Source: a virus (lineage: Duplodnaviria; Caudoviricetes). Taken from it: DNA of 64,000 bases. A model generated the notes under the pieces. The model made no database searches, was not told the origin of the DNA, and was given only the letters and a program-made list of their open reading frames with translations. This document shows positions 12,454-61,173 of the stretch, piece after piece. Numbering within the stretch: the stretch's first letter is position 1; each line of letters starts with the position of its first letter. Where the stretch lies: the IMG/VR virus record IMGVR_UViG_3300032280_000320, positions 32,001 through 96,000 of that record; one strand, given 5' to 3'. The position numbers and the translations under genes were made by a program.

Positions 12454-12454
12454 G

Positions 12455-12604
12455 TTATTCTCCTACTTGACTATTATCTTCTTCAGAAGTGTTTGTCAGA
12501 TTAGTTATTTCAGCACGTAGGATTGCTATATGCGTCTCATAATTTGAGACAAGCTCTCCAATGCGTTGCTGTAGTGCCTGTACTACTAGTTCTGCTTTAT
12601 CCAT
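12455..12604 (-). CDS. small coiled-coil protein (49 aa)
   Basis: Manual translation MDKAELVVQALQQRIGELVSNYETHIAILRAEITNLTNTSEEDNSQVGE*; AAGGA upstream; fills the gap; not in the ORF track. Confidence 0.6.
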   Translation of the reverse strand: MDKAELVVQALQQRIGELVSNYETHIAILRAEITNLTNTSEEDNSQVGE

Positions 12605-12637
12605 TATATTCCTTTTCTACTTATCATAAGGATACCA

Positions 12638-45285: not shown

Positions 45286-46266
45286 TTACCCCTGTTCTAG
45301 TTGTGCAACTCTTGTAGATAATTCCTGTACGGCTTTGATAAGTGGAGCAATAAACTGCTCATATCTTAATGCTTGGCTTTGATCTTCTTTCAGAATCCAT
45401 CCGCCAAAATCTTCTGCCCCAGATCCATCTACTGCTGCTTTTACTTCTTGAGCTATTAATCCATAATGAACTCTTTCGCCAGCAACTGGTGTTTCAATCT
45501 GATTGCCTTCTGGGTCAAAGGTGGTTACGGTATCGCCAACTATGTATTTATATTTTACTGGGTTTAGAGAATTAATAAAGTTTAGCCCTAAATCAGAAGA
45601 CTCTATCTCTGTTTTTAAATTTAAGTCTGAAGGTGTAATTAAAGATGCAGCATATACTGAGCCTTGGAAAAATCCTCTTTTCCAATTCTTTGCAACTGGT
45701 ATTCCAGAAAATGCATCAACTTCTTGGCCTAAATCAAAAAAGTTATTTGATGACGGGTACCAGTTTGAGTTAACTCCATATGCAGAAGATGTTGCTAAGT
45801 TTAAACTTATTCTATTATCTAGCGGATCAATGTTTGCATTTTGTCCTGCTGGACCTTGAGGTCCTGCTGCTCCTGTTGCTCCGTCTGCACCTCTTGGAAT
45901 AGTAAAATTTAATTTTACATCAGATATTGTTCCAGAGTTTGTAACAGATGCATTTGTTCCAGCTGCGCCTGTTGATGTTGATTGAACTGTTATTGTTGCA
46001 GCAGCGTCGCCTTTATCGCCTTCTGGACCTACGGGGCCCTGAACACCCTGCACACCTTGTGAGCCAGTTGCGCCAGTCAATCCCTGCGGACCCTGCGGTC
46101 CTTGCGCTCCTGTGGCTCCTGTGGGTCCTGCGGGCCCTACAGGGCCTGGGTGTGAGTCTAGGTACTGGTCAATGTCCAAAGCAAGCTGAGAGATATCCCT
46201 AGGTACGTCAGGGGTATCTGTATAGTCTGGGTAACTAAAGTTCTTGTCATTTGGTACAGTAGCCAT
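45286..46266 (-). CDS. collagen-repeat fibre protein with C-terminal peptidase S74 chaperone
   Basis: Gly-X-Y runs ([22 protein letters not shown]...), then SDLNLKTEI...LNPVKY...HYGLIAQEV...[17 protein letters not shown]; ATG 6 nt after TGG-TATAAT. Confidence 0.85.
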
Positions 46267-46287
46267 TTTTTAATTATACCACCTAAA

Positions 46288-46890
46288 TTACCAAAGCCAA
46301 AAACCTGGGCACATATACTTTGTGCCAGATATTAACTTTTTAGATTGGTGCAGATATGGCTCTGAAGATGGGAATATGACTATGCTTCCAGCTTGAGGCT
46401 TTATAGTAACATTTTGATTTGGAAATGCTAACTCTCCACCTTCATAATCATCGTTTAAATATGAAACAATAGAGTATCTTAATCTTGAATTTCCGTCATT
46501 TTGATCAGCATGTGGACCCATTTCTGTTCCAACATTATACTTTTTAATAGCTGAGTCGGTATCAATTTTTACATCGCCTTCTACATTATTATACTGTTTA
46601 TATAATGAAGCGCAGAATTTCATATTTGCAATAACGCTATTAATTATATAAAGCTCTTTTGAAGAAGGCTCTTTACCAATTTTTTCATAATTAGCATCAA
46701 TCATTTTTGCATAGCCGTATACTGTATCTGAATCGTTGCTTGCTGTCCAAGGCTTCCATTTAGATATAAATGCAGTATCAATTGAATCGTCATTCTCTGA
46801 CTGCTCTATAAGATCTATTAATCTGCTAGGCTCAGAAATTGAATTAGTAAAATAAAATATGTTTGGTGCTAATTGGTGAAACTCGTACAT
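46288..46890 (-). CDS. prolyl-4-hydroxylase-like 2OG-Fe(II) oxygenase
   Basis: HAD...YLNDDYEGGEL...PYLH...GTKY. Confidence 0.88.
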   Translation of the reverse strand: MYEFHQLAPNIFYFTNSISEPSRLIDLIEQSENDDSIDTAFISKWKPWTASNDSDTVYGYAKMIDANYEKIGKEPSSKELYIINSVIANMKFCASLYKQYNNVEGDVKIDTDSAIKKYNVGTEMGPHADQNDGNSRLRYSIVSYLNDDYEGGELAFPNQNVTIKPQAGSIVIFPSSEPYLHQSKKLISGTKYMCPGFWLW

Positions 46891-46891
46891 T

Positions 46892-47608
46892 TCAATCTCC
46901 TATAAACTCGGTTCCAGTAAACCAAAATGATGGACACATGTATTTGTGTCCACTTTTAACTAAATGTGCTGTGTGACTGTATGGTGATGATGAAGGGAAT
47001 AATATTGCACTTCCCGCCTTTGGTTTTACAGAAACTGTTATCTTGTTTGCATTTTCTTTTGCAAGGAAGTCTGGGTGAGGCTTTTCTTCATGGCCAACAA
47101 TTCCATCTTGTATTGTAAATGAAATTTCTCCACCCTCGTAATCATCGTTAAGATATAATACTACAGAATATCTTAATCTTGTATCTCCTTCTTGCTGATC
47201 AAAATGTCCTCCCATAAAAGTTCCAACATCGTACTTATTGATTCCGACATCTTGGTACATATTAAGAGGGTCTTCTATTTTATAAAAATCTCTATATGCT
47301 TCAAATGAATTTTTGAATGCTGAGTTTATTGTGCCAAATATATAAGAAAACTTATCTAATGTATCTTCGTCAACAACTTTTGCTAGATCACCAGATTTGT
47401 AGCTTTTCCAATGATCTGAGTTTATGTTTTTATTTGTGCCATAAACATACATTTCTCCACTGCAGGCTTCCCATGATTTCCATTTTGGAATTAATGTAGT
47501 AATCTTTTCGTTATCTTCTGTTTTTTCAATTGCAGAAATTAACTCCTCATGGTTGTCAATTAAACCTGTTATATAAAGTATGCCATTGTTTATCTCTGTT
47601 ACATTCAT
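46892..47608 (-). CDS. prolyl-4-hydroxylase-like 2OG-Fe(II) oxygenase
   Basis: HFD...YLNDDYEGGEI...PYSH...GHKY. Confidence 0.88.
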   Translation of the reverse strand: MNVTEINNGILYITGLIDNHEELISAIEKTEDNEKITTLIPKWKSWEACSGEMYVYGTNKNINSDHWKSYKSGDLAKVVDEDTLDKFSYIFGTINSAFKNSFEAYRDFYKIEDPLNMYQDVGINKYDVGTFMGGHFDQQEGDTRLRYSVVLYLNDDYEGGEISFTIQDGIVGHEEKPHPDFLAKENANKITVSVKPKAGSAILFPSSSPYSHTAHLVKSGHKYMCPSFWFTGTEFIGD

Positions 47609-47617
47609 AGTGTCTCC

Positions 47618-48205
47618 TTAGTGAACTATTGTTCCATTTCTCCAAAAATGCGGTATAAATATTTTTCTGCCAGAAGTTAACTTTAAAGAGCCATGTAAAT
47701 ATGGCTCTTTTGAAGGAAACAAAATAATACTACCAGCTTTTGGCTTTAGTGTTATATTCTGCTTGCTAAAGTATATCTCTCCTCCTTCATAATTATCATT
47801 TAGATATATTACAAAAGAATATTCAAGCATTTTTTGATCTTCGTTCCAATCAGTATGCTGACCCATTTCTTGTCCCTCAGCATATTTATTTAAAACAAAA
47901 TCTTTAGCTATTCCAGGCTCATCTTCTATATCATATAGTTTAGCATATTCTTTAGCACAAGCGTACATGGCATCAATTATTTCCATTGTAAGTTTGCCTG
48001 AATCTGACTCCCGCTGTGAAGAATCTTTTATTGATATAAATTTTCTTTCTCCATAGACATATGTTGTTTCTGCATTTGCTTCCCAGCTTACCCAATCTGA
48101 AATAACATCATCACTGATTGAATCAACTTTTTCAACCCATTTTTCTGGGTTTGATATTGCGTCTTCAAAATAAACTATTTTATCATATAGAACTTGAGAT
48201 TTCAT
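47618..48205 (-). CDS. prolyl-4-hydroxylase-like 2OG-Fe(II) oxygenase
   Basis: HTD...YLNDNYEGGEI...PYLH...GRK. Confidence 0.88.
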   Translation of the reverse strand: MKSQVLYDKIVYFEDAISNPEKWVEKVDSISDDVISDWVSWEANAETTYVYGERKFISIKDSSQRESDSGKLTMEIIDAMYACAKEYAKLYDIEDEPGIAKDFVLNKYAEGQEMGQHTDWNEDQKMLEYSFVIYLNDNYEGGEIYFSKQNITLKPKAGSIILFPSKEPYLHGSLKLTSGRKIFIPHFWRNGTIVH

Positions 48206-48206
48206 A

Positions 48207-48950
48207 TTAAAGACCCTTTGCTGGCCTACTAGAAACTCCTGGTCCTGGTAAAAGCCTTTCTCCTCGTTCTCTCATCTCAGCCCATTCTTCAGCATCTTTT
48301 GCTTGCTGTAGTCTTGCTTCTGCGATTTCCGTTTCCCATCTAGCTCTTGTTTCATCAGTATATTCTATTTCTTCAAAATCCCAAAACGATCCAACTGTAT
48401 ATCTTGTGCCATCTTCTATTGGTAGGACTTCGTGTATATTGTGATGTCCGCCCTCAAATGCTGCAAGCAGTCCTTTTCTTGGCTTTATTGTTATCTCGTG
48501 ATCTCTAAAGTTAAGCTCTCCACCTTCAAAGTCATCGTTAAGATAAAGGAATGTTGCCATTTTACTTCTTTCAAATGCATTATACTCTGGGCTATCTAAT
48601 GGAGTATTGTCTGAATGGAATCCAGCAAATGCTCCTTTTATCCATTTTTGTGAATGATAGCTAACTTTTCTAAGTGGTCCACCTCTTGTATCTTCGGTGG
48701 CAGCTTTAATTCCAGCCTCTAAATCTGTAAAGAAGTTTGCTGGTAGCCCAAACTGAAGCATGTCGTCATCTTCTGGTAAGTTTGAAGAGAATGATTCGTA
48801 GAAAGAAATTGGTCCCCAAATAAGAGTACCCTTTTCTGTTGAGTGTTCCCAATACTTTAATATAGCATCACAGTGTTCTGGCGATATGAAGTTTTCGTAT
48901 AAAACTACATCGCTTTTTAAAACCTTCTTGCCATCAAGATTATATATCAT
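48207..48950 (-). CDS. prolyl-4-hydroxylase-like 2OG-Fe(II) oxygenase
   Basis: HSD...YLNDDFEGGEL...NIHEV...GTRY. Confidence 0.88.
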   Translation of the reverse strand: MIYNLDGKKVLKSDVVLYENFISPEHCDAILKYWEHSTEKGTLIWGPISFYESFSSNLPEDDDMLQFGLPANFFTDLEAGIKAATEDTRGGPLRKVSYHSQKWIKGAFAGFHSDNTPLDSPEYNAFERSKMATFLYLNDDFEGGELNFRDHEITIKPRKGLLAAFEGGHHNIHEVLPIEDGTRYTVGSFWDFEEIEYTDETRARWETEIAEARLQQAKDAEEWAEMRERGERLLPGPGVSSRPAKGL

Positions 48951-49788
48951 TTAGTCTTCTCGCTTTCGATACGTCTTGTCGATTTATCTGTTGATAAACT
49001 CCGTTTGCCCTGTCTCTTTTCCATCTTTCTCTTTCCATCTCTGCCCATATTTCTTCTCCATAAAGCTGCTGGTTTTTTATCCATTCTTCAGTGCCTTCAT
49101 GAAATCTAAGCATATTGTTTCTGATAAAGTACTTTGGCTTACCCGTAATTTTTCTAACTCCATGATGGTATAACTCATCACCATCTGTTAAGAAATTAGG
49201 ATCTCCTGCTGGGAAAACAATTACATCTCCAGCTTTTGGCTTATAGTAAAATAGCTTATCATTTATATAAAAATCAACTCCGCCGCCTTCGTAGTCATCA
49301 TTTAAATACATAGTTACGGTTACAGCAAAATTATATCCTCTAGCGTCTCTTTTTTCTACTTGGTAGTCTGTGTGATAGTGCATTGCAAGATCTAGTGCTA
49401 CTTCTGCTTCTTCATTATACTTGCATATAGAAGGACCCATTTTTATCCATTTGTTTTTTGATTTACCATCAACTTCATCAAGAAACGATTCAAATGAATA
49501 TTCAACATTATTTTTCTTAAAATAGTCATCAACTACTGTGAAAAATACTCCTTCTATTTCTGCTAAAGCTTCTCTTTCTTTTATGACCCTTGGAGTGTCT
49601 TCTGCATCACGAATAAAATTATCTGCTTCTAGACCAAACGTATACCAATCTTCCCAAGGATGAATCATTGACCCTTCAGGATTTACCTCTGACTCTATTA
49701 TTGTATTTAAAAGTGAGTCTAGGTCTCTGAATGTGTTAGAATAAACAAAAATCTTTGGATAAATTTCTCTGTACTGAAGTTCACTCAC
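48940..49788 (-). CDS. prolyl-4-hydroxylase-like 2OG-Fe(II) oxygenase
   Basis: HTD...YLNDDYEGGGV...YHHGV...KPKY. Confidence 0.88.
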   Translation of the reverse strand: MSELQYREIYPKIFVYSNTFRDLDSLLNTIIESEVNPEGSMIHPWEDWYTFGLEADNFIRDAEDTPRVIKEREALAEIEGVFFTVVDDYFKKNNVEYSFESFLDEVDGKSKNKWIKMGPSICKYNEEAEVALDLAMHYHTDYQVEKRDARGYNFAVTVTMYLNDDYEGGGVDFYINDKLFYYKPKAGDVIVFPAGDPNFLTDGDELYHHGVRKITGKPKYFIRNNMLRFHEGTEEWIKNQQLYGEEIWAEMERERWKRDRANGVYQQINRQDVSKARRLNDI

Positions 49789-50474
49789 GGCTGCTTTTCT
49801 CCTGTATGTTTTAATATATTCCAGAAAAATGGTGAGGTATATCTATTACCAGATAATACTGGTCTTACTCCATGAACATAATTTCTATCTCCTGGGAAGA
49901 AGTAAGCTGATCCAGCATTTGGCTTAAATTCAATTCCTTGTATTGGAAAAAATAGTTCTCCGCCTTCGTAGTCATCGTTAAAATAAAATATTGATGCAAT
50001 GTCGTAATGTGGGAAATCGTTAGGTGTTCCAGCATCTGGGCCTTCATGAAGTTCTTTGTCTGCATGAGGATCTTGTCTAGTTCCAACTGGCCATCTTACA
50101 ATAGCTGGTCCTGTTGCCTGTACATCTACATCAAAAAATTTATCTACTTCTTTTTTAAGTCTGACAATTAATCCTTCAACAACAGCTACAATTGAAGGGT
50201 CATGTGATATATCCATTGATTTTCTTGTGCATACTCTGTCTGCCCAGACGTTTGCATCATATATAACTGTCCCGTTTTCATTAAAATGTGACTCTGTTAT
50301 ATCCCATGTCTTGTTGCTAAATGCAAAATCAGTTAATCTTTGCTTTTCTGATTCAGTTAAGAAGTTTTTTAACTCAACAATATTATCTGTTGAATCACCA
50401 AAAAAACCAGAAGGTGTAATTGATGTAAGCTCTTTGTAATTATGCTCTTTGTTTGTATTTACTTGCTTTTGCAT
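49785..50474 (-). CDS. prolyl-4-hydroxylase-like 2OG-Fe(II) oxygenase
   Basis: HAD...YFNDDYEGGEL...YVHGV...GNRY; probable start MQKQ at 50474 (GGAG Shine-Dalgarno). Confidence 0.88.
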   Translation of the reverse strand: MQKQVNTNKEHNYKELTSITPSGFFGDSTDNIVELKNFLTESEKQRLTDFAFSNKTWDITESHFNENGTVIYDANVWADRVCTRKSMDISHDPSIVAVVEGLIVRLKKEVDKFFDVDVQATGPAIVRWPVGTRQDPHADKELHEGPDAGTPNDFPHYDIASIFYFNDDYEGGELFFPIQGIEFKPNAGSAYFFPGDRNYVHGVRPVLSGNRYTSPFFWNILKHTGEKQP

Positions 50475-50482
50475 TTTTTCTC

Positions 50483-51232
50483 CTATTGGTATTTTCTTTT
50501 TGACCAAAACTTCTTTTTATAGACTCCACCATCTGGTGTTCTAAATGTATTAGCTGTCTCCATATGCTTTTGTAAAATCTCTTCTGCCGTCCTAAAAACC
50601 AAGTCTGATTCCCAGTCTTCTCTTTTGAAAGGAATTATTTGCATATACGGTGTGCCTGCTGGCACTACGCCTGTAAAACCTTTTTGCAAGAAAAACGGGA
50701 TAAGACCTGAGTTAGTTACCTTATCACTATCTATTATACCAGCCACTGTTAAAAATGGTAAATCAAATCTATTAACTGGCGATAGGTATATTGCACTATA
50801 TCCTTCTGGAAGTACTGGTGCCCAATTTGCATACCAATGAAAATGATCATCGTCATACCCTGCTGGGGTTACAAATCCTTCCATGACTGTTCTTTCTCCA
50901 ACAAAATCTTCAAAACCAATATCTGTCTTGACTTTTGTTCTCCCACGCTTTTCATAAAACTCAATATCGCATGGAGTAAGTAGGGCATATCCTGTTGTAA
51001 ATATATCAAGTATTGCTGGGCAGGACTTATACGACATGACCTTTGATACCCCATCTTGGTTTACGTAAGGTACGCCATTTGGATCTTTAATATAAATGCT
51101 TGCATCTTGCCACCATTTTGCAATTGATTTACTCATAGGAGATGGGGAATGAGTGCCATCTTTTTTATTATAAGTTTTATTAGAATGAAATGTTATTTTA
51201 TTTGTCACTGCAGGCCACTGGCTTTCCGTCAT
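50483..51232 (-). CDS. DUF6065-like protein (oxygenase-cluster associated)
   Basis: YKSCPAILDIFTTGYALLTPCDI...GIIDSD...AGTPYMQIIPFKR; recognised by eye, start uncertain. Confidence 0.55.
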   Translation of the reverse strand: MTESQWPAVTNKITFHSNKTYNKKDGTHSPSPMSKSIAKWWQDASIYIKDPNGVPYVNQDGVSKVMSYKSCPAILDIFTTGYALLTPCDIEFYEKRGRTKVKTDIGFEDFVGERTVMEGFVTPAGYDDDHFHWYANWAPVLPEGYSAIYLSPVNRFDLPFLTVAGIIDSDKVTNSGLIPFFLQKGFTGVVPAGTPYMQIIPFKREDWESDLVFRTAEEILQKHMETANTFRTPDGGVYKKKFWSKRKYQ

Positions 51233-51920
51233 TAACCTTTAATCTTAAAGCTTTTATTTCATGATCACCTATTTTATTACCATAATGATCTACGCCATCT
51301 CTATAGAAATTTGTCCATTTGCCAGCCTTATTTATTTCATAAACAATATCTCCATATTTATCATCTGGGAAAAACCCTGGAGGCAATTCAAACATATCAC
51401 GAACTACCGCTTCTGAGTTGTTTAGTTCTTGTAATGATATTGGCATTATGGATATTACTGGTGTGCCAGCCTTAATAGTAATTACTGTATCTGGTCTAGT
51501 AATTCTCCATGCTACTGGAAATTCACCTTTAAAGAATGAAGTTGATATAACTCCAGTAAATGGGTGTGCTCCGTCTATAAATTGATTAGGGACGGGCATT
51601 CCCATTATACTGAGGTTCTCTTCAGTTCTAAAAAGCAAACCAGTATTAAAGCTTATAGTTGCATTTCCTCTTGTGTTATGTGCGTACTTTTCTCCTGAAA
51701 GGATCTTTACGTGATCTGATTCTGAATTAGAAATGCCATCCCATATAAAGCTAATATCCTCTGGGAAAGATATCCCCCAACCAAGAGCATTTGAAAGACT
51801 TACTGGAAAGCATTTATATGCATGCGCCTCATAAGTTTCGTCCATCCAGGATCTTTTTATTCCCAGTGGCTCAAGCTTTCCATAGTTTGCTCTTGTTTGG
51901 TAGACATCAAATTTGTGCAT
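51198..51920 (-). CDS. DUF6065-family protein
   Basis: RSWMDET...HAYKCFPVSLSNALGWGI...IWDG...GVIST...WRITRP...AGTP. Confidence 0.65.
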   Translation of the reverse strand: MHKFDVYQTRANYGKLEPLGIKRSWMDETYEAHAYKCFPVSLSNALGWGISFPEDISFIWDGISNSESDHVKILSGEKYAHNTRGNATISFNTGLLFRTEENLSIMGMPVPNQFIDGAHPFTGVISTSFFKGEFPVAWRITRPDTVITIKAGTPVISIMPISLQELNNSEAVVRDMFELPPGFFPDDKYGDIVYEINKAGKWTNFYRDGVDHYGNKIGDHEIKALRLKVNDGKPVACSDK

Positions 51921-52597
51921 TAGTACTCACTATCTTTTAATGAAAGATTCGTAGCATGTTGTTTATAAAATTCTGGCGAATGTGCAGAATCATTATAGTC
52001 AGTCATTGTTACTAAGGAATATTTTGTTCCAGTTAGAACTGGCATTGCTCTATGTGAAAATAAATACGTTGATGGAAAAATAAATAAGTCTCCAGCATTT
52101 GGTTTTACCTCAATCCCAAGTTTTCCAAAGCTTAATCCGCCACCCTCGTAATCATCATTTAGGTATCCAACCATTGAAACTGTAGCAATATATGACCAGC
52201 CGTGGTCAGCATGCTCAGCAAAGTGTTGCCCTGGACCATACTTAATAAAATTCATTGCTTCCCAATACTTCATATCAATATTGTAAAACTTTGAGTAGTC
52301 ATCTAGTGCAACCTTTTGAGCGTCATAAAGATCTTGCCATACTCTATCAAATTCAAGCATGTACTCATCTTTGCCTGGGTAGTCCATCTTTTTTAATTTA
52401 AAATCGTAGCAATCACGATATTCTGGAATTTTTTCTCTATAGCCTACAGTGGCTTCTTTCCAGTTATGCAGTCCATTACTTGCCTTTAGAGTATTTTCAA
52501 CTCTTTCAATGGCATTGATTTCTGGCTTTAATACGTCACGGTATAGCCATAATCCAGGAAACAGCTCTTCTTTTGAAGAGTATCCAATATTTGACAT
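51920..52597 (-). CDS. prolyl-4-hydroxylase-like 2OG-Fe(II) oxygenase
   Basis: KYGPGQHFAEHADH...YLNDDYEGGGL...FSHRAMPVLTGTKY. Confidence 0.9.
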   Translation of the reverse strand: MSNIGYSSKEELFPGLWLYRDVLKPEINAIERVENTLKASNGLHNWKEATVGYREKIPEYRDCYDFKLKKMDYPGKDEYMLEFDRVWQDLYDAQKVALDDYSKFYNIDMKYWEAMNFIKYGPGQHFAEHADHGWSYIATVSMVGYLNDDYEGGGLSFGKLGIEVKPNAGDLFIFPSTYLFSHRAMPVLTGTKYSLVTMTDYNDSAHSPEFYKQHATNLSLKDSEY

Positions 52598-52642
52598 TAA
52601 TTACTTCTTTCTATTATTATCTAAATTAATAAAAAAATTAAT

Positions 52643-53035
52643 TTAGCTCCAAGCACTTCCAGTTTCTGGTAGGGTTTCAGAAGTTACTGGGTAAACTGAT
52701 ATACCTTCAGCTGCAGCCTTTATAAATGCCTGTACTGTTCCTGTACTTACATACATAACTCTTTTTATATAAAATATTTTATTGTCAGAGATAAAAGCAA
52801 ATCTGTGCTGTCCTTCTACAATGTGTGCTGGTTCACTGTCATCATGAGTAAAAGATGTTCCATCCCATGTTGAGCCAATTCTTGCCTCTTCATTATCTGT
52901 TATATCAATAATGCCAGTTGTATTATCAAATCCCGCTTTTTTTCTAGGATATGAAGGAGCTTCTGGATCTAATGTTACTGTTCCTAGAACAATATTATCT
53001 GAAACAAAAACGTATGAATTTTCTATAATTGCCAT
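52643..53035 (-). CDS. small two-repeat protein, possible fibre assembly chaperone
   Basis: Internal duplication (YVFVSDNIV...IGSTWDG / FAFISDNKI...TGSAWS); directly downstream of a PPxF gene. Confidence 0.55.
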   Translation of the reverse strand: MAIIENSYVFVSDNIVLGTVTLDPEAPSYPRKKAGFDNTTGIIDITDNEEARIGSTWDGTSFTHDDSEPAHIVEGQHRFAFISDNKIFYIKRVMYVSTGTVQAFIKAAAEGISVYPVTSETLPETGSAWS

Positions 53036-53054
53036 TTTTTTTCTCCTGTCAATA

Positions 53055-53063
53055 ATTATATCA
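53055..53063 (-). promoter_or_regulatory. extended -10 promoter (TGA-TATAAT) heading the oxygenase cluster
   Basis: Followed by AGGAG Shine-Dalgarno and ATG at 53035. Confidence 0.6.
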
Positions 53064-53095
53064 TTTAAGTGGGGCTGTTGCCAGCCCCACTTAAA
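53064..53095. terminator. 14-bp perfect hairpin after the PPxF gene
   Basis: TTTAAGTGGGGCTG-TTGC-CAGCCCCACTTAAA. Confidence 0.65.
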
Positions 53096-53101
53096 CTTAA
53101 T

Positions 53102-54067
53102 TTAGTATCTGAATCCGAACCGTGGTGGTGCGAAGTACGGTGGGAAGTATGGTGGTGAGAATCCGAAGTACGGATATCCTCCAAAGTAAGGTGGGAAGTA
53201 TGGTGGTGAGAACCCGAAGTACGGTGGGAAGAATGGTGGGAAGTGTGGTGGGAAGAATGGTGGGAAGTGTGGTGGGAAGAACGGTGGGAAGAATGGTGGG
53301 AAGTGTGGTGGGAAGAATGGTGGGAAGTATGGTGGGAAGAACGGTGGGAAGAATGGTGGGAAGTACGGTGGGAAGAATGGTGGGAAGTGTGGTGGGAAGA
53401 ACGGTGGGAAGAACGGCGGGAAGTGAGGTGGGAAGAACGGTGGGAAGAACGGCGGGAAGTGAGGTGGTGTAAAGGTTGTAACCTGATTAGTACCCACTCC
53501 TGCTGATGTTCCGTTTGCGTTTAATGCATAAACTGTATAACTTTGTGTTGTATTACCTGTCTCTGATATGTCTTTTGGAGATACAGAGTTTACGTAAGAT
53601 GGGCCGTCTGAAGAAACTATAGTATAACTTGATACTGCTTTTCCTCCATCTGATGTCGGTGCGTCCCATGTAACTCGGTCAGTGTTATTAGCAGGAGTTG
53701 TTGCAACTGCGTTTCTTGGTGCTGAAGGAACTGTGGTTGCTGTTACTGCAGCAGATGCAGCAGATGCAGCAGAAGTTCCAGCAGCATTTGTTGCAGTTAC
53801 TGTAAATGTTACAGATGCTGCTGACGCAATACCTTCAACAAGAAGTGGAGAAGATGCTCCAGTTTTTGTTTGTCCAGTACTTGCTGTTACTGTATATGAT
53901 GTAGCGGCAGGAGAGAGTGCTGGTAGGGAAAAAGCTACAGATACTGCAGCATTATTAAATGCTCTACCCGTTCCAACATCTGTTCCTGTGACACCTATCG
54001 GTGCTAAAGGCTCTAAGAAGTCATTTGACGCCTGAGACTTTTTACCTATTTTCTTACCTGATGCCAT
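53102..54067 (-). CDS. FN3-domain virion protein with C-terminal (PPxF)n repeat tail
   Basis: Two FN3-like domains ([13 protein letters not shown]; VPSAPRN...[11 protein letters not shown]...[12 protein letters not shown]), then 26 PP[F/H/Y/R]F units ending PPRFGFRY. Confidence 0.85.
53105..53468 (-). repeat. 12-bp coding tandem repeat (PPxF)
   Basis: + strand GGTGGGAAG(AAC/AAT/TGT/TAC/TAT/TGA) units; 21 contiguous units plus interrupted ones. Confidence 0.95.
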
Positions 54068-54099
54068 TTTTATCTCCTAATTTCTTACTGAATTTTTTA

Positions 54100-56133
54100 T
54101 TACGCTGTCAAGTCGCCGAAGACAACCCATGTATTTTGTGCTCTCTTGAATAGAGTTGCAGATGACCATTGGGTTCTCAACTTTAATCCTGGTGTTGCAT
54201 TTACTGTTACTCCTGCACCTGCGGCTACTGTTACTTGACCTGCTCCAGTTTGAAGAATATCAATTGAAGTTCCAATTGGATAATCAACTGCTGATGCTGG
54301 TGGAATTGTTAGAGTTAGTGCTGATCCTGAACCCATTTCAATTAGGTCATCTCTTTCAGTTAGTGATGAAAGTGTGTATGATGCTGTCTTCTGTGAAATT
54401 GGTGTTAAAGAGTCTACCTTTAATCCAAGGCTAGTTGTTACTGTTGCTGCAAAGTTTGCATCATCACCAAGGGCTGCAGCAAGCTCATCAAGTGTGTTAA
54501 GGGCTGCTGGAGCACCTGTTAGTAGTGCGTTAACCTGTGATGTAGCATCTGCGATTGCTTCTGCTTTTGCAGTTGCGATTGCTGAAGCTTGTGCTGTAGA
54601 TACTGGCTTTGCTGTATCTGCTGTGTTATTAACATTACCAAGACCTAAGCTTGTTGCTGTAACTGCTGCAACTTCTGACTTAAGAGCAAGAAGTGATGTG
54701 TCTGCAATGCCATGTACTGCTGTTGTATCTAATGTATGTGTTGAAACTGCTGAATCTGCATAAGCTTTTGTTGCAAGATCTGCGGTGTTTGCAATTCCGT
54801 GAACATTTGTTTCATCTGCTGCGTGGGTTGTTAGATCTCCTGCATTTGCTTTTAAGTCTAATGCTGTCTGTGTAGCAGTTGAAATTGGCTTTGCTGCATC
54901 TGCTGTATCATCTACGTTAGAAAGACCAACCATGCCCTTAGTTATTCCGCCAACTGTACCAGTAAATACTGGTGAAGCTAGTGGTGCTTTTTCATCTAAC
55001 TGAGTCTGTACGTTAGATGTAACATTGTTTAGGTATCCAATTTCAGTGTTTGAAACATCACCGATTGATGTTGTTGCTGGAAGTGTTACTGATCCTGTAA
55101 ATACAGGGCCTGCTGAAGGAGCTTTGCTATCTAACTGAACTTGTATGGCAGATGTTACTCCGTTGACATATCCAATTTCAGTGTTTGAAACATCACCGAT
55201 TGATGTTGTTGCTGGAAGTGTTACTGATCCTGTAAATACAGGGCCTGCTGAAGGAGCTTTAGCATCTAGCTGTACTTGTAGGTTTGATGTTACTCCATCT
55301 ACATATCCAATTTCAGTTGCTGAAACGTTTCCAATTGTTGTTGTTGAAGGAAGAACAACTCCTCCAGTAAATGTTGGTGAATTTAGTGGAGCTTTAGTAT
55401 CTATTGCTGTTAGTGCTCCCTGTACAACAGAAGCGTCAGCCTTTGCTGTTAATGCTGTTGTTACTGTAGATGCAAAGTTAGCATCATCGCCAAGGGCATC
55501 TGCAAGTTCGCTTAATGTATTTAAAACTGCTGGTGCTGCACCAACAAGTTGAGCAAATGCTTGATCTGTGTATGACTCTGCATACATCTTTGTTGCCATA
55601 ACTGATGTGTCGGCTGATACTGTAATTGTGTTAGCTACATCGTCGTATGACTTTGTTACACCAGTTCCAGCAATCATTGCTGTATTAACTGCGTCTTGAG
55701 CAGATTCTGCTAATTCAGATTTTACTGCAATCACGCTAGTATCTACGCTTACAGTAATAGTATTAGCTGCATCGTCGTATGACTTTGTGATTCCAGTTCC
55801 AGCGGTAATTGCTGTATTAACTGCATCTTGTGATAACTCTGTTATATCTAATTGAGATGCTGGCACTTTACCTGAACTGTTAAGTGATGCTACACCATTA
55901 GCCTGACCAAGTAGATTATCTTCAAGATAAGCTCCTACTCTATTCTCTAAATCAGACAATGGTTCATTTGCATAAGGAAGGGCATTCCATGCCACGCTTC
56001 CAGTTCCAAATTTAAAATAATTTGTGTCGGACTCTAGTCCAACTTCTCCTGCTGCTAGAATTGGGTTAACTTGAGCCCATTGAGCTTCTGTTCCTCTTCT
56101 TACTTGAATTCTTACTGTTGACATATTTGCCAC
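54100..56133 (-). CDS. fibre protein with Mtd-N-like N-terminus and internal repeats
   Basis: RIQVRRGTEAQWAQVNPILAAGEVGLESDT...KFGTG...WNALPY; two AP.xLNTLxELAxALGDDANFA modules; KAP..xP.FTG repeats; terminal LRTQWSSATL...WVVFGDL. Confidence 0.8.
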   Translation of the reverse strand: MANMSTVRIQVRRGTEAQWAQVNPILAAGEVGLESDTNYFKFGTGSVAWNALPYANEPLSDLENRVGAYLEDNLLGQANGVASLNSSGKVPASQLDITELSQDAVNTAITAGTGITKSYDDAANTITVSVDTSVIAVKSELAESAQDAVNTAMIAGTGVTKSYDDVANTITVSADTSVMATKMYAESYTDQAFAQLVGAAPAVLNTLSELADALGDDANFASTVTTALTAKADASVVQGALTAIDTKAPLNSPTFTGGVVLPSTTTIGNVSATEIGYVDGVTSNLQVQLDAKAPSAGPVFTGSVTLPATTSIGDVSNTEIGYVNGVTSAIQVQLDSKAPSAGPVFTGSVTLPATTSIGDVSNTEIGYLNNVTSNVQTQLDEKAPLASPVFTGTVGGITKGMVGLSNVDDTADAAKPISTATQTALDLKANAGDLTTHAADETNVHGIANTADLATKAYADSAVSTHTLDTTAVHGIADTSLLALKSEVAAVTATSLGLGNVNNTADTAKPVSTAQASAIATAKAEAIADATSQVNALLTGAPAALNTLDELAAALGDDANFAATVTTSLGLKVDSLTPISQKTASYTLSSLTERDDLIEMGSGSALTLTIPPASAVDYPIGTSIDILQTGAGQVTVAAGAGVTVNATPGLKLRTQWSSATLFKRAQNTWVVFGDLTA
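55034..55260. repeat. exact 92-bp direct repeat (period 135 bp = 45 aa) inside the fibre gene
   Basis: 55034-55125 is identical to 55169-55260; more diverged copies flank them. Confidence 0.85.
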
Positions 56134-56156
56134 CCCTAATTTAGACTTATTTTGTA

Positions 56157-56165
56157 ATTATAGCA
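56157..56165 (-). promoter_or_regulatory. extended -10 promoter (TGC-TATAAT)
   Basis: Intergenic, upstream of the fibre gene start at 56133. Confidence 0.55.
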
Positions 56166-56185
56166 TCATAAAAATTCAAAAACAA

Positions 56186-56575
56186 TTAACCAATTGTTCC
56201 TGAATCAAAAGTCATACTATAGCTTGTTGTGCCTGTATCTCCACCGTCTGCAAACTTTGTAGCCGTACTATTGACTCCATTTGCATAAACTGTGTATATT
56301 GGCTGACCATCAAAATCTATGGCCAAACCAATGTCCATAAATGTTAGTGCTGTTGTATCTTCGACTGCATCTTCTAAAAGAGCTATCTCTTTCCATACTC
56401 CGCCAACTTGGATCTTTAGTCTTCCAGTCGTCGAATCATACGCTAGGGGTGTTGAATTTAATACAAGATTATCTACATTTACGGCAGAAGAAAATGTTGC
56501 TGCTCCTGCTATTGTTGCTGCTCCTGCGACATTCAAGCCATTCTTTACTCTAAAGTTTTTATCTACTGTTGCCAT
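56186..56575 (-). CDS. small virion protein with acidic DGG-type C-terminus
   Basis: MATVDKNFRVKNGL N-terminus shared with the upstream gene; FADGG / FDSG tail. Confidence 0.65.
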   Translation of the reverse strand: MATVDKNFRVKNGLNVAGAATIAGAATFSSAVNVDNLVLNSTPLAYDSTTGRLKIQVGGVWKEIALLEDAVEDTTALTFMDIGLAIDFDGQPIYTVYANGVNSTATKFADGGDTGTTSYSMTFDSGTIG

Positions 56576-56608
56576 TTAAGTTCACATATCCCCTAATTGT
56601 TTTATTGT

Positions 56609-56631
56609 GGGGGATTTTTAAGGAATCCCCC
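56609..56631. terminator. hairpin after the Ala-rich fibre gene
   Basis: GGGGGATT...AATCCCCC stem. Confidence 0.5.
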
Positions 56632-56646
56632 AAAACCTTTATTTAA

Positions 56647-57939
56647 TTATTTAAGTAGTGTTCCAGTTACTTTGATTGTTGAATCATTTACTGGATTTAC
56701 TCTTATCTGAACATTTGCTCCAGATACTATTGCTGTAATTGAACCTCTTGATCCATTAGTTCCAACAATTGCATATTCTGTAATTGCTACGTTATCTGAT
56801 GAATCTAGTGTTAATAGAATTTCTGATATCTCATTGTGTGTTCCATTGTCAATTTTAACAAGGAACTTTCCTGAACGGTAATCTGCTTTTGGCCACTCGT
56901 AAGCAGTTACTATAACTGATCCAAGTGATGTTGATGATGCTGCAATTTGCTTAGCCTGATCATTAACATTTAGAGCTGTAAAGGCTGTGGTTCCGTTTTG
57001 CTGTGCTGTATTAGCTGCTGCTGCTGTAGCTTCTGCTGCTGCTTGAGCGGCGTTGGCCTTAGTTGTAGCGTCTGTTGCTGCTGCAGAAATTGCTGCTGCT
57101 TGAGCGGCGTTAGCCTTAGTTGTAGCGTCTGTTGCTGCTGCAGAAATTGCTGCTGCTTGAGCGGCGTTGGCCTTAGTTGTAGCGTCTGATGCTGCAGTTG
57201 AAACGGCTGTTGCAATGTTTGTCGCAACATCTGATGAGTTAGCCTTTGTTGCCAAAGCTGTTGTAATAGTTGTTGTGTAATTAGCATCATCATTTATTGC
57301 TGCTGCTAATTCATTTAATGTATTAAGAAGTGCTGGTGCACCATCTACTAATGAGTCTACTGCAGTTGAAATTGCTGTATTACGATTTGTAACCTCTGTT
57401 GAGATTGCAGTTGAAAGTGCTGCTGCTGCTGTAGCTTCTGCTGCTGCTTGAGCGGCGTTAGCCTTAGTTGTAGCGTCTGTTGCTGCTGCAGAAATTGCTG
57501 CTGCTTGAGCGGCGTTGGCCTTAGTTGTAGCGTCTGATGCTGCTGTAGCAACTGAGGCTGCGTCGCCTGATACTCTAAGTGCTGCTTCTGCTGCTACCTT
57601 TGTTGTAGCATCTGTTGCTGCTGCAGTAATTGCTGCAGACTGTGCTGCATTAGCTTTTGATGTTGCGTCAGATGCTGCGGTTGCTTCTGCTGCAGACTGT
57701 GCTGCTGCTGCTGAACCTGCTGGATCAAATACGCCAGATTTTACGGAGAGTTTTCCTGCTCCATTTACTTCAAGTTGTGTAGCCTCTACGGACTTTACAA
57801 GAGTTGCTCCACCAACAAGATTCAGAATATAATTATCTGCACCTGTTTCTGTAAGTATATTTTGGCCATTAATTGTACCCGTTGTACCTTCTACAATTAA
57901 GCCTTGTTTAATTCTAAAGTTCTTATTTACTGTTGCCAT
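56647..57939 (-). CDS. Ala-rich coiled-coil virion fibre protein
   Basis: 20-aa repeats ATDATTKANAAQAAAISAAA (60-bp DNA period); GAPALLNTLNELAAAINDD; beta-rich C-terminal domain. Confidence 0.75.
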   Translation of the reverse strand: MATVNKNFRIKQGLIVEGTTGTINGQNILTETGADNYILNLVGGATLVKSVEATQLEVNGAGKLSVKSGVFDPAGSAAAAQSAAEATAASDATSKANAAQSAAITAAATDATTKVAAEAALRVSGDAASVATAASDATTKANAAQAAAISAAATDATTKANAAQAAAEATAAAALSTAISTEVTNRNTAISTAVDSLVDGAPALLNTLNELAAAINDDANYTTTITTALATKANSSDVATNIATAVSTAASDATTKANAAQAAAISAAATDATTKANAAQAAAISAAATDATTKANAAQAAAEATAAAANTAQQNGTTAFTALNVNDQAKQIAASSTSLGSVIVTAYEWPKADYRSGKFLVKIDNGTHNEISEILLTLDSSDNVAITEYAIVGTNGSRGSITAIVSGANVQIRVNPVNDSTIKVTGTLLK

Positions 57940-57953
57940 TTGCAACCCCCTTG

Positions 57954-58505
57954 TTAAGCTTTAAGCGCAGTTCTGTAATATCTAGCAGTTACGCTAGCGG
58001 CTACAGGAGTTACGCATAAACCAATTATACCTGAATTTTCTTCAAAAGTAACAGAAGCAAGCGTGTTATTTGTATTAGAAATAATGTTTGATTCTGCTAC
58101 GTTTATGTTTGTACCATCATTCAAAATCACTAGAGATGAAGAAACGTATTCATTACCTCTTGTAATCTGAAGTTCATATTTTACTGTTCTGTATACTGTT
58201 TTTGAAAAAGTATCAATTGTTGTTTTGTTTTCTATACCATTTATAACAACATCATTATTACCTTCAAGGCCGAAAAGAATATCTCCAGCGTCTGTGGTAT
58301 TTTGAAGTGTTGTAAGAGCAGTAGAAATCTCTGAGACCTTGTAGTCTAATGAGTCTGGATCTGTAGATCCATCTACACCAACCTTTGTCTGTATTGCTTC
58401 TAGAGCATCATTGATGTCTGTGTGAAGAGCTGCGTGACCAGATAAAGAGTCTGTTGCCGACGGATTATCTAGGTTATCTAAAGTTGTTGGAAAATCTGTT
58501 GCCAT
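57954..58505 (-). CDS. virion structural protein (putative)
   Basis: MATDFPTTLD...HTDINDALEAIQTKVG N-terminus; C-terminal domain (YRTVKYELQI...INVAESNII) resembles that of 56647..57939. Confidence 0.65.
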   Translation of the reverse strand: MATDFPTTLDNLDNPSATDSLSGHAALHTDINDALEAIQTKVGVDGSTDPDSLDYKVSEISTALTTLQNTTDAGDILFGLEGNNDVVINGIENKTTIDTFSKTVYRTVKYELQITRGNEYVSSSLVILNDGTNINVAESNIISNTNNTLASVTFEENSGIIGLCVTPVAASVTARYYRTALKA

Positions 58506-58558
58506 GTTGCCTCCATGCGGTGTAACCTTATCTAATTATATCGTATATTTTATTATGA

Positions 58559-58792
58559 TTACCACTTTTTTAGTGGACATTCCGCATATTTTATTTTTGT
58601 TTTAGCTTTCATTATACACCCACATTCTTTACATTGTGTTGTAAGACTTATGAATCTTGGGCATTCTTTGCATATAGATAGTTTTGATTCCGCTTCATCA
58701 TCAGATACATACTCAGTTCTAGGATTCAATAAATCCCACGGTCTTGTATCTCCAAGCTTTTCTTTATAGTTTTCCCATGCAGAAAGTGTCAT
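58559..58792 (-). CDS. small Cys-rich protein (DUF6171-like)
   Basis: ICKECP...QCKECGCIMKAKTK...CPLKKW; start overlaps the stop of the PPxF gene (TAATG). Confidence 0.7.
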   Translation of the reverse strand: MTLSAWENYKEKLGDTRPWDLLNPRTEYVSDDEAESKLSICKECPRFISLTTQCKECGCIMKAKTKIKYAECPLKKW

Positions 58793-61173
58793 TAGTATCT
58801 AAATCCAAAACGTGGTGGTGAAACAGCAAAGTGTGGTGGGAAGAACGGTGGGAAGTGTGGTGGTGTGAATGCAAAGTATGGGAATCCACTAAAGTACGGT
58901 GGGAAAAACGGTGGGAAGTGTGGTGGGAAGAACGGTGGGAAGTGAGGTGGGAAGAACGGTGGGAAGAACGGTGGGAAGTGTGGTGGGAAGAACGGTGGGA
59001 AGTGTGGTGGTGTAAATGCAAAGTATGGGAATCCGCCAAAGTACGGTGGGAAGAACGGTGGGAAGTGTGGTGGTGAAAACGCAACGGTTGCACAAGCTGC
59101 TTGTGCGGCAGCAGCGAGTGCTGCTGCATAGGTAGATCTATAAACTATTTTTTCTCTTGAATTAGATGCGCCAGTTAGTACATCTGCTGGCATTGATGAT
59201 GCAGTATAAGGACCAGCAGCAGAAGGGGCGGATATATATGCACCGCTGTTTGCATTACACCAGGAAGTTCCAATGTAATATTCTATTGCAATAGGTTCTA
59301 CATATCCGCAATCTGCTGAATTCCAAGTCCAATATACAGTTGCCTGATAAGTCTTATCTCCATATGTTGGTGATCCAGTACAGTCTCTATAAATTCCTTG
59401 AGCAACTCCATTTAAATAATATTGTTCTCTGTATCCATAAATTGGTCTGGACCAAGTCATTTTTGTTGTTCCAGTACAGTCATATCCATAATCAGTTCCG
59501 TTATTATACTGTGTACATGCACCCCAAGTTGCTACTGGTGCAGGTGCAGAAGGAACTCTAGAATTTGATGTTGCAGTTGCTGATCCTGCGCTATTGCTTG
59601 CTGTAACTATACATTTAATTGAAAATCCATCTAGGTATGATGGTGTTGTTATTGAAGATCCAGTTCCTATATTTATCCAAACTGATCCCTGGTCATTATA
59701 CTGCCACTGATAAGAGTAAGATGTTGGATTATTATTCCAAGTTCCAACACTTGATACTGACCAGTCTCTATTTGATCCAGATATAACTGGTGAGCCACCA
59801 GCCCATGTTGGCGCAATAACTGTTGGTGGTTTAACAACTGATTGAGCTGAGTTGCTGCTTGCCACTGGTGTAGTTAAAGTTAAATCGGTTAACAAAAGTT
59901 GTACGGTACATGATATTGCTTTGTTGTCATAAGCTGTTGTGTCATAAAGATTAATTGTATCTGATTCATATATAAATATATTATCTATTGGTGATCCGTC
60001 TGCAAACCATTCATATAAATATGAATATATTGATGAAGTGTTTGTCCATGTTCCAGTTGTTGCAGAAAATACTCTTCCATTAGATGTAGACACTGTAGGG
60101 GCTACTGTATTTACTGGTTTTGGTACCGCTGGGTAATTGATTGCAAGTCCAGGAGAAGAGCTCCAAGATGTCTCATCAAATCTTGGCGCAGTTCCATTTA
60201 TTGTTATTGTAAATGAGCCAAACGATGCGCCTCCTACTCCAACCTCTTGAATAGTATATGAGGTTACGTTAGGTCCTCCATTCATAAAGCTACCTGCGTA
60301 TGAAACCCCATTATTATATATAATCCAAGATGTTGGCTGTATTAAATTTAATGACCAGTTTAATGTTGCGCCAGACATGTTCGCCCCAGTCATTGTAGTT
60401 GTTACTGATGGCTTATTTGGCTTTAGGTCATTAACGGATCCATTTTTACCATAGCCCGTTACTGTCATTCCACTCACATTGGAAGTGTTTAAAGGATTAA
60501 TTAACAGGCCAATAGTCCCATCAGCATTACCAGTATCAAATGTATATGTGTTAACATCTCCAAGAGAAGGCACCTGGGTAAATGATACTTCAGGACCTTG
60601 ATATTGTAGATAGAAATCATTTGCTCCAATTGGCTTTACCCAATCAATCTTTACAACACCATTTTCTACAACTGTAACAGTTAAGTTTGTTAATTTTTGT
60701 GGGGCAATAATAGGTGTTGGTAAAGTATATACTGGCTCTCTGTTATCTCCATATTGATTGGTTGCAGTAACTTTGCATCTTACTACATATCCAACATATT
60801 TTAATGTTCTTGAAGAATTCCATTCATCTTCATTTAAGAATAACGAGTTCTCTGTTTTACCATTAATGTCAGACCAATTTAAAGATGATCCAGAATAAGG
60901 AGCTTTTTGCCATTGGTACCTATAAGATGTTGGAGAATTATCCCATGTTCCAGTTGAGACAGATATGGTTTCTTGTGCTCCATATAAATAATTATCTGGT
61001 TGTAAAGATATAATTGGCAATACTTTGTTTATTGGAGTAACTTCTGTTACTGGTTTCCAAGTTGTGCCGTCATAAATAAAAATGCGCTTAGCATCATTCC
61101 AGGTAATCCCGTCATGAAGTTTTATTTTTTTGAAGGGATTCCACGAAGAACCATTCCAAATATTTAGCGGCAT
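58792..61173 (-). CDS. Ig/FN3-repeat virion protein with Cys-containing region and C-terminal (PPxF)n tail
   Basis: N-terminal IWNGSSW / DGITW / DGTTW; three Ig-like GTW..xPTSY.YQW...C.VTA.N modules; 17 PPxF units ending PPRFGFRY. Confidence 0.85.
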   Translation of the reverse strand: MPLNIWNGSSWNPFKKIKLHDGITWNDAKRIFIYDGTTWKPVTEVTPINKVLPIISLQPDNYLYGAQETISVSTGTWDNSPTSYRYQWQKAPYSGSSLNWSDINGKTENSLFLNEDEWNSSRTLKYVGYVVRCKVTATNQYGDNREPVYTLPTPIIAPQKLTNLTVTVVENGVVKIDWVKPIGANDFYLQYQGPEVSFTQVPSLGDVNTYTFDTGNADGTIGLLINPLNTSNVSGMTVTGYGKNGSVNDLKPNKPSVTTTMTGANMSGATLNWSLNLIQPTSWIIYNNGVSYAGSFMNGGPNVTSYTIQEVGVGGASFGSFTITINGTAPRFDETSWSSSPGLAINYPAVPKPVNTVAPTVSTSNGRVFSATTGTWTNTSSIYSYLYEWFADGSPIDNIFIYESDTINLYDTTAYDNKAISCTVQLLLTDLTLTTPVASSNSAQSVVKPPTVIAPTWAGGSPVISGSNRDWSVSSVGTWNNNPTSYSYQWQYNDQGSVWINIGTGSSITTPSYLDGFSIKCIVTASNSAGSATATSNSRVPSAPAPVATWGACTQYNNGTDYGYDCTGTTKMTWSRPIYGYREQYYLNGVAQGIYRDCTGSPTYGDKTYQATVYWTWNSADCGYVEPIAIEYYIGTSWCNANSGAYISAPSAAGPYTASSMPADVLTGASNSREKIVYRSTYAAALAAAAQAACATVAFSPPHFPPFFPPYFGGFPYFAFTPPHFPPFFPPHFPPFFPPFFPPHFPPFFPPHFPPFFPPYFSGFPYFAFTPPHFPPFFPPHFAVSPPRFGFRY
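58795..59075 (-). repeat. 12-bp coding tandem repeat (PPxF), second copy
   Basis: Same GGTGGGAAG-NNN unit; blocks of 3, 10 and 3 units separated by [G/S]GFPYFAFT. Confidence 0.95.

Follow-up and report, generated by a model that had tools for sequence, protein, structure and literature searches.

The locus analysed here raises the question of what a tailed phage modifies with seven tandem Fe(II)/2-oxoglutarate (2OG) oxygenases. The genes form an array at positions 46288-52597 of a 64,000-nucleotide stretch of DNA, hereafter called the window, which covers positions 32001-96000 of the 114,331-bp IMG/VR virus record IMGVR_UViG_3300032280_000320, rated 100% complete and of uncultured source. All genes of interest lie on the minus strand of the window. 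Upstream of the array are two genes, designated carrier 1 and carrier 2, whose products end in long tails of Pro-Pro-x-Phe (PPxF) units. The genomic coupling of such aromatic polyproline tails with arrays of prolyl 4-hydroxylase (P4H)-like oxygenases was found to be strong, specific and bidirectional. Hydroxylation of the Pro-Pro-x-(Phe/Tyr/His) tails on the phage's own fibre-module proteins is the most likely mechanism of the array, a reading that we hold with slightly better than even confidence from the sequences compared. Coordinates of the features are collected in Table 1.

All seven array open reading frames (ORFs) match the Pfam family PF13640 (2OG-FeII_Oxy_3) with 32.6-51.1 bits against a cut-off of 27 (E 1.6e-7 to 2.7e-13), and their pairwise identity in the alignment is 25-42%. 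The HxD...H triad is intact, H127, D129 and H181 being invariant across the seven aligned sequences, and a Lys or Arg ten residues past the distal His was read from the alignment in 7/7 enzymes. The motif Y144-x-N146-D147-x-x-E150-G151-G152 occurs in the versions YLNDDYEGG, YLNDNYEGG, YLNDDFEGG and YFNDDYEGG. Family matches and alignment thus agree with the original prediction, made from the DNA alone, of seven divergent oxygenases carrying these signatures. A profile built from the seven enzymes and searched against solved structures placed the Bacillus anthracis P4H (3itq, 5hv0) first, with an E-value of 4e-14 over nearly the full length (profile positions 15-196). Human P3H1 (8k0e, 2.4e-9), PKHD/PiuC-type hydroxylases (~2e-8), the P4H of Paramecium bursaria chlorella virus 1 (PBCV-1; 5c5t, 3.4e-8) and a Chlamydomonas P4H (2jig, 4.3e-6) were also matched, with lysyl hydroxylases and PHD2 lower down. 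By profile comparison, the array enzymes are therefore closest to solved prolyl 4-hydroxylases and peptidyl-prolyl hydroxylases, in line with the predicted P4H-like branch. Their nearest cultured relatives are cyanomyovirus 2OG-Fe(II) oxygenases, at 26-40% identity.

The candidate substrates are the tail of carrier 1 and, probably, that of carrier 2. The units of carrier 1 comprise 12 PPFF, 7 PPYF, 6 PPHF and 1 PPRF, so that the predicted total of 26 is exact. Its fn3 match of 24.0 bits is just below the cut-off of 25, and in its relatives the domain scores above the cut-off in 7/7 cases, which upholds the description as an FN3 protein. The predicted 17 units of carrier 2 were likewise exact; the Ig-like character also ascribed to this protein was not recovered, as carrier 2 gave no Pfam or PHROG family match. 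The two tracts are 78-86% identical at the DNA level. Both carriers terminate in PPRFGFRY with coding that differs by three synonymous changes, and this eight-residue cap is conserved at the protein level between them. A repeat-DNA artefact was considered as the origin of the PP.F frame and rejected: the frame is continuous with FN3 or other N-terminal domains, is present in hundreds of contigs and shows synonymous change at the shared C-terminus. A 121-amino-acid (aa) His/Ser/Thr/Arg-rich ORF at 58764-59129 (minus strand) is another frame of the carrier 2 repeat DNA and almost certainly no gene.

Whether repeat and enzymes belong together was examined from both sides. IMG/VR was scanned with a degenerate DNA pattern for (PPxF)5, which is present in at least 120 stretches; the 120 repeat loci referred to below are the matches listed. 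Among these, 121 ORFs contained at least four in-frame units, mostly at the extreme C-terminus and very often ending in PPxFK. Record-level analysis used 50 of the 80 listed repeat records, selected solely for a length of at least 16.7 kb; PF13640 was present in 45 of the 50, with five or more matches in 37. At the locus level, a hidden Markov model (HMM) of the window's seven enzymes detected an oxygenase in 87/120 listed repeat loci, and our own DUF6065 HMM detected a DUF6065-like gene in 64/120. For carriers followed by at least 3 kb of downstream DNA, an oxygenase was detected in 49 of 57. The nearest oxygenase was on the same strand as the repeat gene and downstream of it in 107/131 cases. 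Oxygenases within 300 nt of the repeat gene were of the ox9 type in 38 cases, the ox6 type in 24 and the ox3 type in one.

Two controls were compared with these figures. In the collagen control, which consisted of viral contigs identified by a Gly-Pro-x DNA pattern, PF13640 was present in 9/46 records with a maximum of three matches each, and the loci contained an oxygenase in 8/119, a DUF6065-like gene in 2/119, a Pro/aromatic window in 1/119 and a PPxF run in 0/119. In the cellular control, the identical (PPxF)5 pattern was present in at least 120 loci of bacterial and archaeal genomes, and an oxygenase was detected in 2 of the 120 listed. Both of these loci are of the phage type, PP[FHY]F...PPSFK; the cellular repeats are otherwise monotonous and non-aromatic, with V, P, R, S, L, G or A at position x. 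The controls therefore indicate that the repeat-enzyme link is specific to the aromatic viral form. Cellular genomes, those of several filamentous cyanobacteria among them, often contain frames of the type (PPVF)n, (PPPF)n, (PPRF)n and (PPSF)n; many of these frames seem to be short ORFs over simple DNA repeats, and no oxygenase lies near them.

The reverse test started from the first oxygenase, which has at least 559 relatives in IMG/VR; the best 80 of these are referred to as the 80 array loci. A strict run of at least four PPx[FYWH] units was present in 15/80. A composition test, which required a minimum of 8 Pro and of 8 Phe/Tyr/Trp within 24 aa, detected a Pro/aromatic tract in 50/80; among the 37 loci with 8 kb or more of DNA ahead of the match, 34 had one. 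Tracts beyond the strict pattern are variants, for example (A/S/G)PPGFF and mixtures of PFF and PPFF, on the same FN3 carrier and starting near residue 200. Relatives of the carrier 1 N-terminal part were present at 42/120 repeat loci and 39/80 array loci, and the N-terminal part of carrier 2 had no relative in the 200 loci examined.

The pairing was also followed within one lineage, anchored on the LamG-type gene of the window. Close relatives (81-98% identity, ~8-10 kb of upstream DNA) contain array and repeat carrier in 6/6 cases, and distant relatives (36-39% identity, full 10-kb upstream flank) contain neither in 6/6. Five distant records searched over their whole length, two of them 76-79 kb long and 66-70% complete, had PF13640 in 0/5 and (PPxF)3 in 0/5. 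In near-identical phages (81-98% LamG identity; loci L484-L487 and L489) the stop-to-stop frame of the FN3 carrier measures 324, 300, 324, 310 and 316 codons; close relatives therefore seem to differ in how many repeat units they carry.

BLAST comparison of the carriers' N-terminal parts gave nine clusters, five with 49, 36, 6, 3 and 3 members and four singletons. With at least 3 kb of downstream DNA, an oxygenase was found nearby for 30/30 FN3 carriers, 16/19 small carriers (60-90-aa N-terminal part) and the members of minor types (2/2 and 1/1); none was found for a large fibre-type cluster (0/2) or three singletons (0/3). The window capsid protein was detected in 10 of the 50 repeat records and was not found in a 155.9-kb record, 98% complete, with seven PF13640 matches, so at least two capsid lineages are involved. 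A search for Gp23 (PF07068) was uninformative, as none was found in five large repeat records and none in the control genomes either. Co-occurrence was thus strongly positive in both directions, relative to the collagen and cellular controls and within a lineage. The coupling holds for carriers that are not related to one another, at least five types of them having oxygenases nearby, and it extends over two or more capsid lineages.

Because the tail-enzyme pairing recurs in many phage fragments, hydroxylation by the array enzymes is most likely aimed at the tails. The array would then be a late-region battery of P4H-like Fe(II)/2OG enzymes acting on the tails. Before modification, the tail is expected to be an extremely hydrophobic rod of the polyproline-II type. 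Several of the paralogues would hydroxylate tail prolines, and perhaps other positions too, and hydroxylation would both stiffen and solubilise the rod, giving a modified appendage on a virion-associated protein. The original prediction that the phage encodes substrates together with a tailoring line is supported in part, by the co-occurrence and by the P4H kinship; a general role of collagen as partner is not, as discussed below. Complex prediction for ox9 (44-row alignment) with tail residues 195-250 gave a score of 0.01 in a calculation that had no control runs, a value that carries no weight either way on binding.

The free C-terminus of the tail may matter to this mechanism. In the window it takes the form of a conserved short cap, and in relatives that of PPxFK, a Cys-rich knot or a Hint domain that would remove itself. 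Among 163 Pro/aromatic ORFs from both locus sets, 87 stop within 12 residues past the tract; in 32 the tract is followed by 13-70 further residues (those read were Cys-rich) and in 44 by a domain longer than 70 residues. Seventeen of the longer domains were aligned. The aligned domain begins with a Cys directly after the tract, invariant in 17/17, and a terminal H-N is present in 10/17. Its profile matched the bacterial intein-like (BIL) domain 2lwy at E 6.1e-9 and mini-inteins at ~1e-6; in single-sequence Pfam searches Intein_splicing was matched in 13/17 and Hint_2 in 7/17, all under the cut-offs. Owing to the invariant Cys at the tract end and the 2lwy profile match, self-cleavage in many relatives is probable, with the carrier probably cutting itself exactly at the end of the tract. 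Judged from these sequence features, Hint-capped relatives are suggested to undergo either self-cleavage or ligation at that point. Examples of Hint-capped carriers (among loci L137-L209 and L013-L107) are L159:4455-4946, L147:3317-3766 and L203:4192-4650. Carriers 1 and 2 of the window have no Hint domain and end in the PPRFGFRY cap instead.

Two genes between ox6 and ox9 had both been predicted to be DUF6065-like. The assignment holds in full for one (51198-51920), by Pfam; the other (50483-51232) is a remote relative only. Both match phrog_7084 (E 1.9e-30 for the remote relative vs 4.3e-8 for the Pfam-assigned protein) and BLAST of one product against the other gave only E 0.03, so the label is fair but remote for the second gene. 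In the family alignment W25, Y35, P39, G47 and N112 are invariant and C37 is nearly so. A single-sequence structure model was unusable, with a predicted local distance difference test (pLDDT) score of 30; rebuilt with a 42-row alignment, the model reached pLDDT 87.7 and a predicted template-modelling score of 0.80. Foldseek comparison of this model with the PDB ranked trimeric dUTPases first (E 8e-5; template-modelling score 0.6-0.7 on the target and 0.38 on the query; 10-17% identity), and comparison with a viral library returned uncharacterised phage proteins first, with dUTPases common thereafter. A profile search of PDB sequences with the DUF6065 family found no dUTPase and no other solved protein. 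The predicted fold of DUF6065 is a dUTPase-like beta-barrel rather than an oxygenase fold. Metagenomes contain very many members of the family (1268 proteins at E ≤1e-5), and those in the ESM Atlas are predominantly viral; the family was also found in 30/301 alphaproteobacterial genomes, with an oxygenase in 1/29 of those loci, for which the flanks were only 1.5 kb. Relatives of the 50483-51232 product (26-28% identity, E ~1e-13) are present in 49 haloarchaeal tailed-virus records.

Several observations weigh against hydroxylation of the tails as the function of the array. PF13640 was missing from 5/50 repeat records, all of them fragments of 11-31% completeness; for 8/57 carriers followed by 3 kb or more of DNA the locus contains no oxygenase, and 3/37 arrays (loci L171, L183 and L197) have no repeat upstream. 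Many of the contigs are related, so the counts given above are counts of sequences and not of independent events. In the window itself, a hairpin and a promoter-like site lie between carrier 1 and the enzymes, which are therefore possibly not one transcript. The arrays of the cyanophages Syn9 and S-SM1 showed no Pro/aromatic tract in a coding frame, and arrays of this kind can therefore act on something else. The DUF6065 partner has, by predicted model and Foldseek, the fold of a nucleotide enzyme, and the relative of the 50483-51232 product in Halorubrum tailed phage 7 (HRTV-7), gp38, adjoins a thymidylate synthase and a family-B DNA polymerase. One DUF6065-like gene is also kept upstream of the LamG gene in four distant relatives without oxygenases or repeat (loci L492, L493, L499 and L500), so that the presence of DUF6065 does not strictly depend on an array.

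These last points bear on a different explanation, in which the array serves the synthesis or modification of a small molecule or nucleotide, and the repeat proteins lie beside it only because both belong to a mobile, variable cassette of the fibre region. The predicted dUTPase-like fold taken together with the halovirus neighbourhood is the best argument for a nucleotide-linked function. A precedent is the tandem dioxygenase array of Synechococcus phage Syn9 (gp41-gp54), for which the section of Iyer, Abhiman, de Souza and Aravind (2010; PMC2938197) on that array lists 10 tandem dioxygenases, a dUTPase-fold protein with a conserved Cys and two halogenases, and suggests secondary-metabolite synthesis. 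Syn9 gp43 matched the DUF6065 model (E 6e-7). Against such a function, the closest solved relatives of the array enzymes act on peptide proline, the single Tet_JBP match among the array ORFs is weak and under its cut-off (E 1.3e-3), and a search of the phage genome for a tryptophan halogenase (PF04820) found none. The both-or-neither pattern within the lineage, and the adjacency of enzymes and repeat across unrelated carriers, are also hard to explain by shared location alone. A metabolite or nucleotide product is accordingly considered unlikely, while carrying appreciable weight.

Somewhat less probable again is that hydroxylation is directed at different proteins, for instance the collagen-like fibre, Mtd_N fibres or proteins of the host. 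The tail would then be a docking site or scaffold, for example in enzyme recruitment, and not a substrate. The collagen-like fibre gene lies directly after the array, as had been predicted and as its Collagen and Peptidase_S74 matches bear out, and the best structural relative of the enzymes, the B. anthracis P4H, acts on collagen-like (Gly-Pro-Pro type) peptides. Cyanophage arrays follow tail-fibre genes and Gly-rich proteins, and the Mtd_N fibre is co-conserved with the module: its relatives were present at 75/120 repeat loci and 42/80 array loci, counts to which common fibre repeats may contribute in part. As a general partner of such arrays, however, collagen was rejected. Oxygenases were rare with the collagen pattern, and relatives of the window collagen gene were present at 26/80 array loci, as compared with 50/80 (34/37 with enough flank) for the repeat. 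Furthermore, small carriers, made up of a ~60-90-aa N-terminal part and the repeat, have an oxygenase in the locus in 16/19 cases. The collagen-like fibre of this phage is a possible second substrate.

That the repeat is a string of cores of a ribosomally synthesised and post-translationally modified peptide, oxidised and excised as small modified peptides with the carrier domain as leader, is very unlikely: near-identical repeated units lie beside modifying enzymes and the Hint domain of relatives would supply one built-in cleavage at the tract end, but Pfam and PHROG scans of the ORFs at 43469-63580 found no protease, cyclase or exporter/transporter family, the carriers are FN3 and fibre-type proteins in a structural region, and Hint cuts once and not between units.

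Table 1 Features of the array, the repeat carriers and their surroundings, in window coordinates.
Feature	Position	Strand	Evidence and remarks
HK97-type capsid protein	39030-40100		
Portal protein	41485-43071		
LamG-type gene	43469-45283		Lineage anchor
Collagen-like fibre with C-terminal S74 intramolecular chaperone	45286-46266	-	Gly-X-Y repeats; Pfam Collagen E 2.4e-10, 40.5 bits; Peptidase_S74 E 5.3e-11, 43.1 bits; both above cut-offs
Oxygenase	46288-46890	-	PF13640
Oxygenase	46892-47608	-	PF13640
Oxygenase ox3	47618-48205	-	PF13640
Oxygenase	48207-48950	-	PF13640
Oxygenase	48940-49788	-	PF13640
Oxygenase ox6	49785-50507	-	PF13640
Distant DUF6065-like protein	50483-51232	-	phrog_7084; no Pfam match above gathering score
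DUF6065 protein	51198-51920	-	PF19541, E 1.8e-34, 119.8 bits (cut-off 26.6); nearly invariant Cys37
Oxygenase ox9, first enzyme after the carrier 1 gene	51920-52597	-	PF13640, E 8.5e-13
130-aa ORF	52643-53035	-	Weak phrog_14370 match only
Promoter-like site CTGGCA-18-TATAAT, with TG	53084-53055	-	Overlaps hairpin; hint only
14-bp G+C-rich hairpin	53064-53095	.	Between carrier 1 gene and enzyme block
Carrier 1, 321 aa	53102-54067	-	~200-aa double-FN3 N-terminal part and C-terminal tail of 26 PP.F units
Carrier 1 repeat tract, residues 201-321	53105-53467	-	Unit counts; Tandem Repeats Finder periods 12, 24, 36 and 60 nt at 53184-53467
Mtd_N-type fibre protein	54100-56133	-	Just upstream of carrier 1; Mtd_N E 3.8e-12
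Carrier 2, 793 aa	58792-61173	-	Lineage-specific N-terminal part and tail of 17 PP.F units
Carrier 2 repeat tract, residues 701-793	58795-59073	-	Unit counts; Tandem Repeats Finder 12-nt array at 58892-59002

Of the remaining features, the 130-aa ORF between carrier 1 and ox9 has relatives at 3/120 repeat loci and 4/80 array loci and is probably not a core part of the module. It was also rejected as a counterpart of the gene that precedes the S-SM1 array (BLAST E 1.7). Promoter-like sites across the region numbered 52, vs 52.5 in shuffled sequences, and are thus not in excess.

The genome encodes a portal, a head protease and an HK97-type capsid protein, as expected of a tailed phage, together with a DnaE-type polymerase, a primase and a DnaB helicase. 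A single 3865-aa ORF is located at 22640-34237 (minus strand), upstream of minor-tail-type genes. The capsid protein is 61% identical to capsid proteins of ~130-kb Streptomyces phages; an actinobacterial host fits this likeness without being proven by it. No near-identical DNA match to the block was found among cultured phages. Nor did tblastn with the FN3 carrier or with the DUF6065 gene retrieve any cultured phage; since the low-complexity filter masks the repeat, this does not show that the carrier is absent from such phages. Outside the window the genome has two further PF13640 genes (genome positions 6957 and 102254) and three JmjC_2 (MINA-type) genes (8801, 103042 and 104342). These sit in two small groups, apart from the late array, and the 114-kb genome therefore has ~12 dioxygenase-fold genes.

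P4H-type and 2OG-Fe(II) oxygenase genes are among the commonest reported auxiliary metabolic genes of aquatic phages, and a conserved, phage-encoded candidate substrate makes the question of array function directly testable. If tail hydroxylation is correct, some of these genes would have to be reassigned from host metabolism to the maturation of virion proteins, and the modification would be the first hydroxyproline-type chemistry reported in tailed phages, as far as the literature search shows. The tails would also represent a new repeat class, (PP[F/Y/H]F)n with PPxFF and PFF variants, of possible value as a material or adhesion module. A more far-reaching proposal, which we regard as speculative and unlikely to hold in its entirety, is that lake phages build a new kind of protein polymer. 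An aromatic polyproline, ribosomally made on small fibre-associated carriers, would be oxidised by five to eleven hydroxylases, at Pro and possibly at aromatic or His residues, into an extensin-like rod that is stiff and hydrophilic. The Hint domain found in many relatives would convert the new C-terminus to a thioester and join the rod covalently to another component of the virion or of the host surface. This would be the real job of the abundant aquatic-virome genes annotated as 'P4H' or '2OG-Fe(II) oxygenase' and counted as auxiliary metabolic genes.

A literature search found no publication on a phage Pro-Phe repeat or on DUF6065; strings of the PPFF type were matched in Amanita cyclic peptides and in PR-39-type antimicrobial peptides. 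The passage on prolyl 4-hydroxylase in a 2022 virome survey states that its viral use 'remains cryptic' (PMC9301287), citing Eriksson et al. 1999 on PBCV-1.

Among known systems, the Syn9 array is similar to that of the window in its tandem, divergent, classical 2OG-Fe(II) dioxygenases with a dUTPase-fold protein bearing a conserved Cys, as the Syn9 section of PMC2938197 describes them, and in its place right after fibre genes; its DUF6065-matching gp43 adds to the likeness. It differs in that the same section places two tryptophan halogenases and one JmjC (MINA-type) protein within the array, whereas the window genome has no halogenase and carries its three JmjC_2 genes elsewhere. Syn9 also has no Pro/aromatic repeat gene at the array, and the product proposed in that section is a secondary metabolite, not a modified phage protein. 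Gly-rich fibre-region proteins precede the arrays of S-SM1 (L129, 9717-10769) and Syn9 (gp35-gp39; L501, ~9900-14300) and could be equivalent partners.

The B. anthracis P4H has the same HxD...H...K set as the array enzymes and is their best solved relative, but it is a bacterial enzyme from outside any multi-paralogue array. The likeness to BIL/Hint domains concerns the carriers of relatives, with their invariant Cys and frequent HN end, and not those of the window. PBCV-1 resembles the window phage as a virus with a P4H-type enzyme and its own proline-rich repeat proteins. Eriksson et al. in 1999 are said to have found that the PBCV-1 enzyme can use these proteins (PAPK) as substrates. PBCV-1 is, however, a eukaryotic virus with one enzyme, whereas the window phage is tailed and combines seven paralogues with two dUTPase-fold genes in a single block; the PBCV-1 activity has been measured and that of the window enzymes is predicted, and the window repeat is an aromatic PP[F/Y/H]F sequence forming a terminal tail. 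Both a virus that encodes a P4H together with Pro-rich substrates for it and a tandem phage dioxygenase array with a dUTPase-fold partner are thus already known; within the reach of the literature search, the link of such an array to a repeat, and with it a candidate substrate class, is new.

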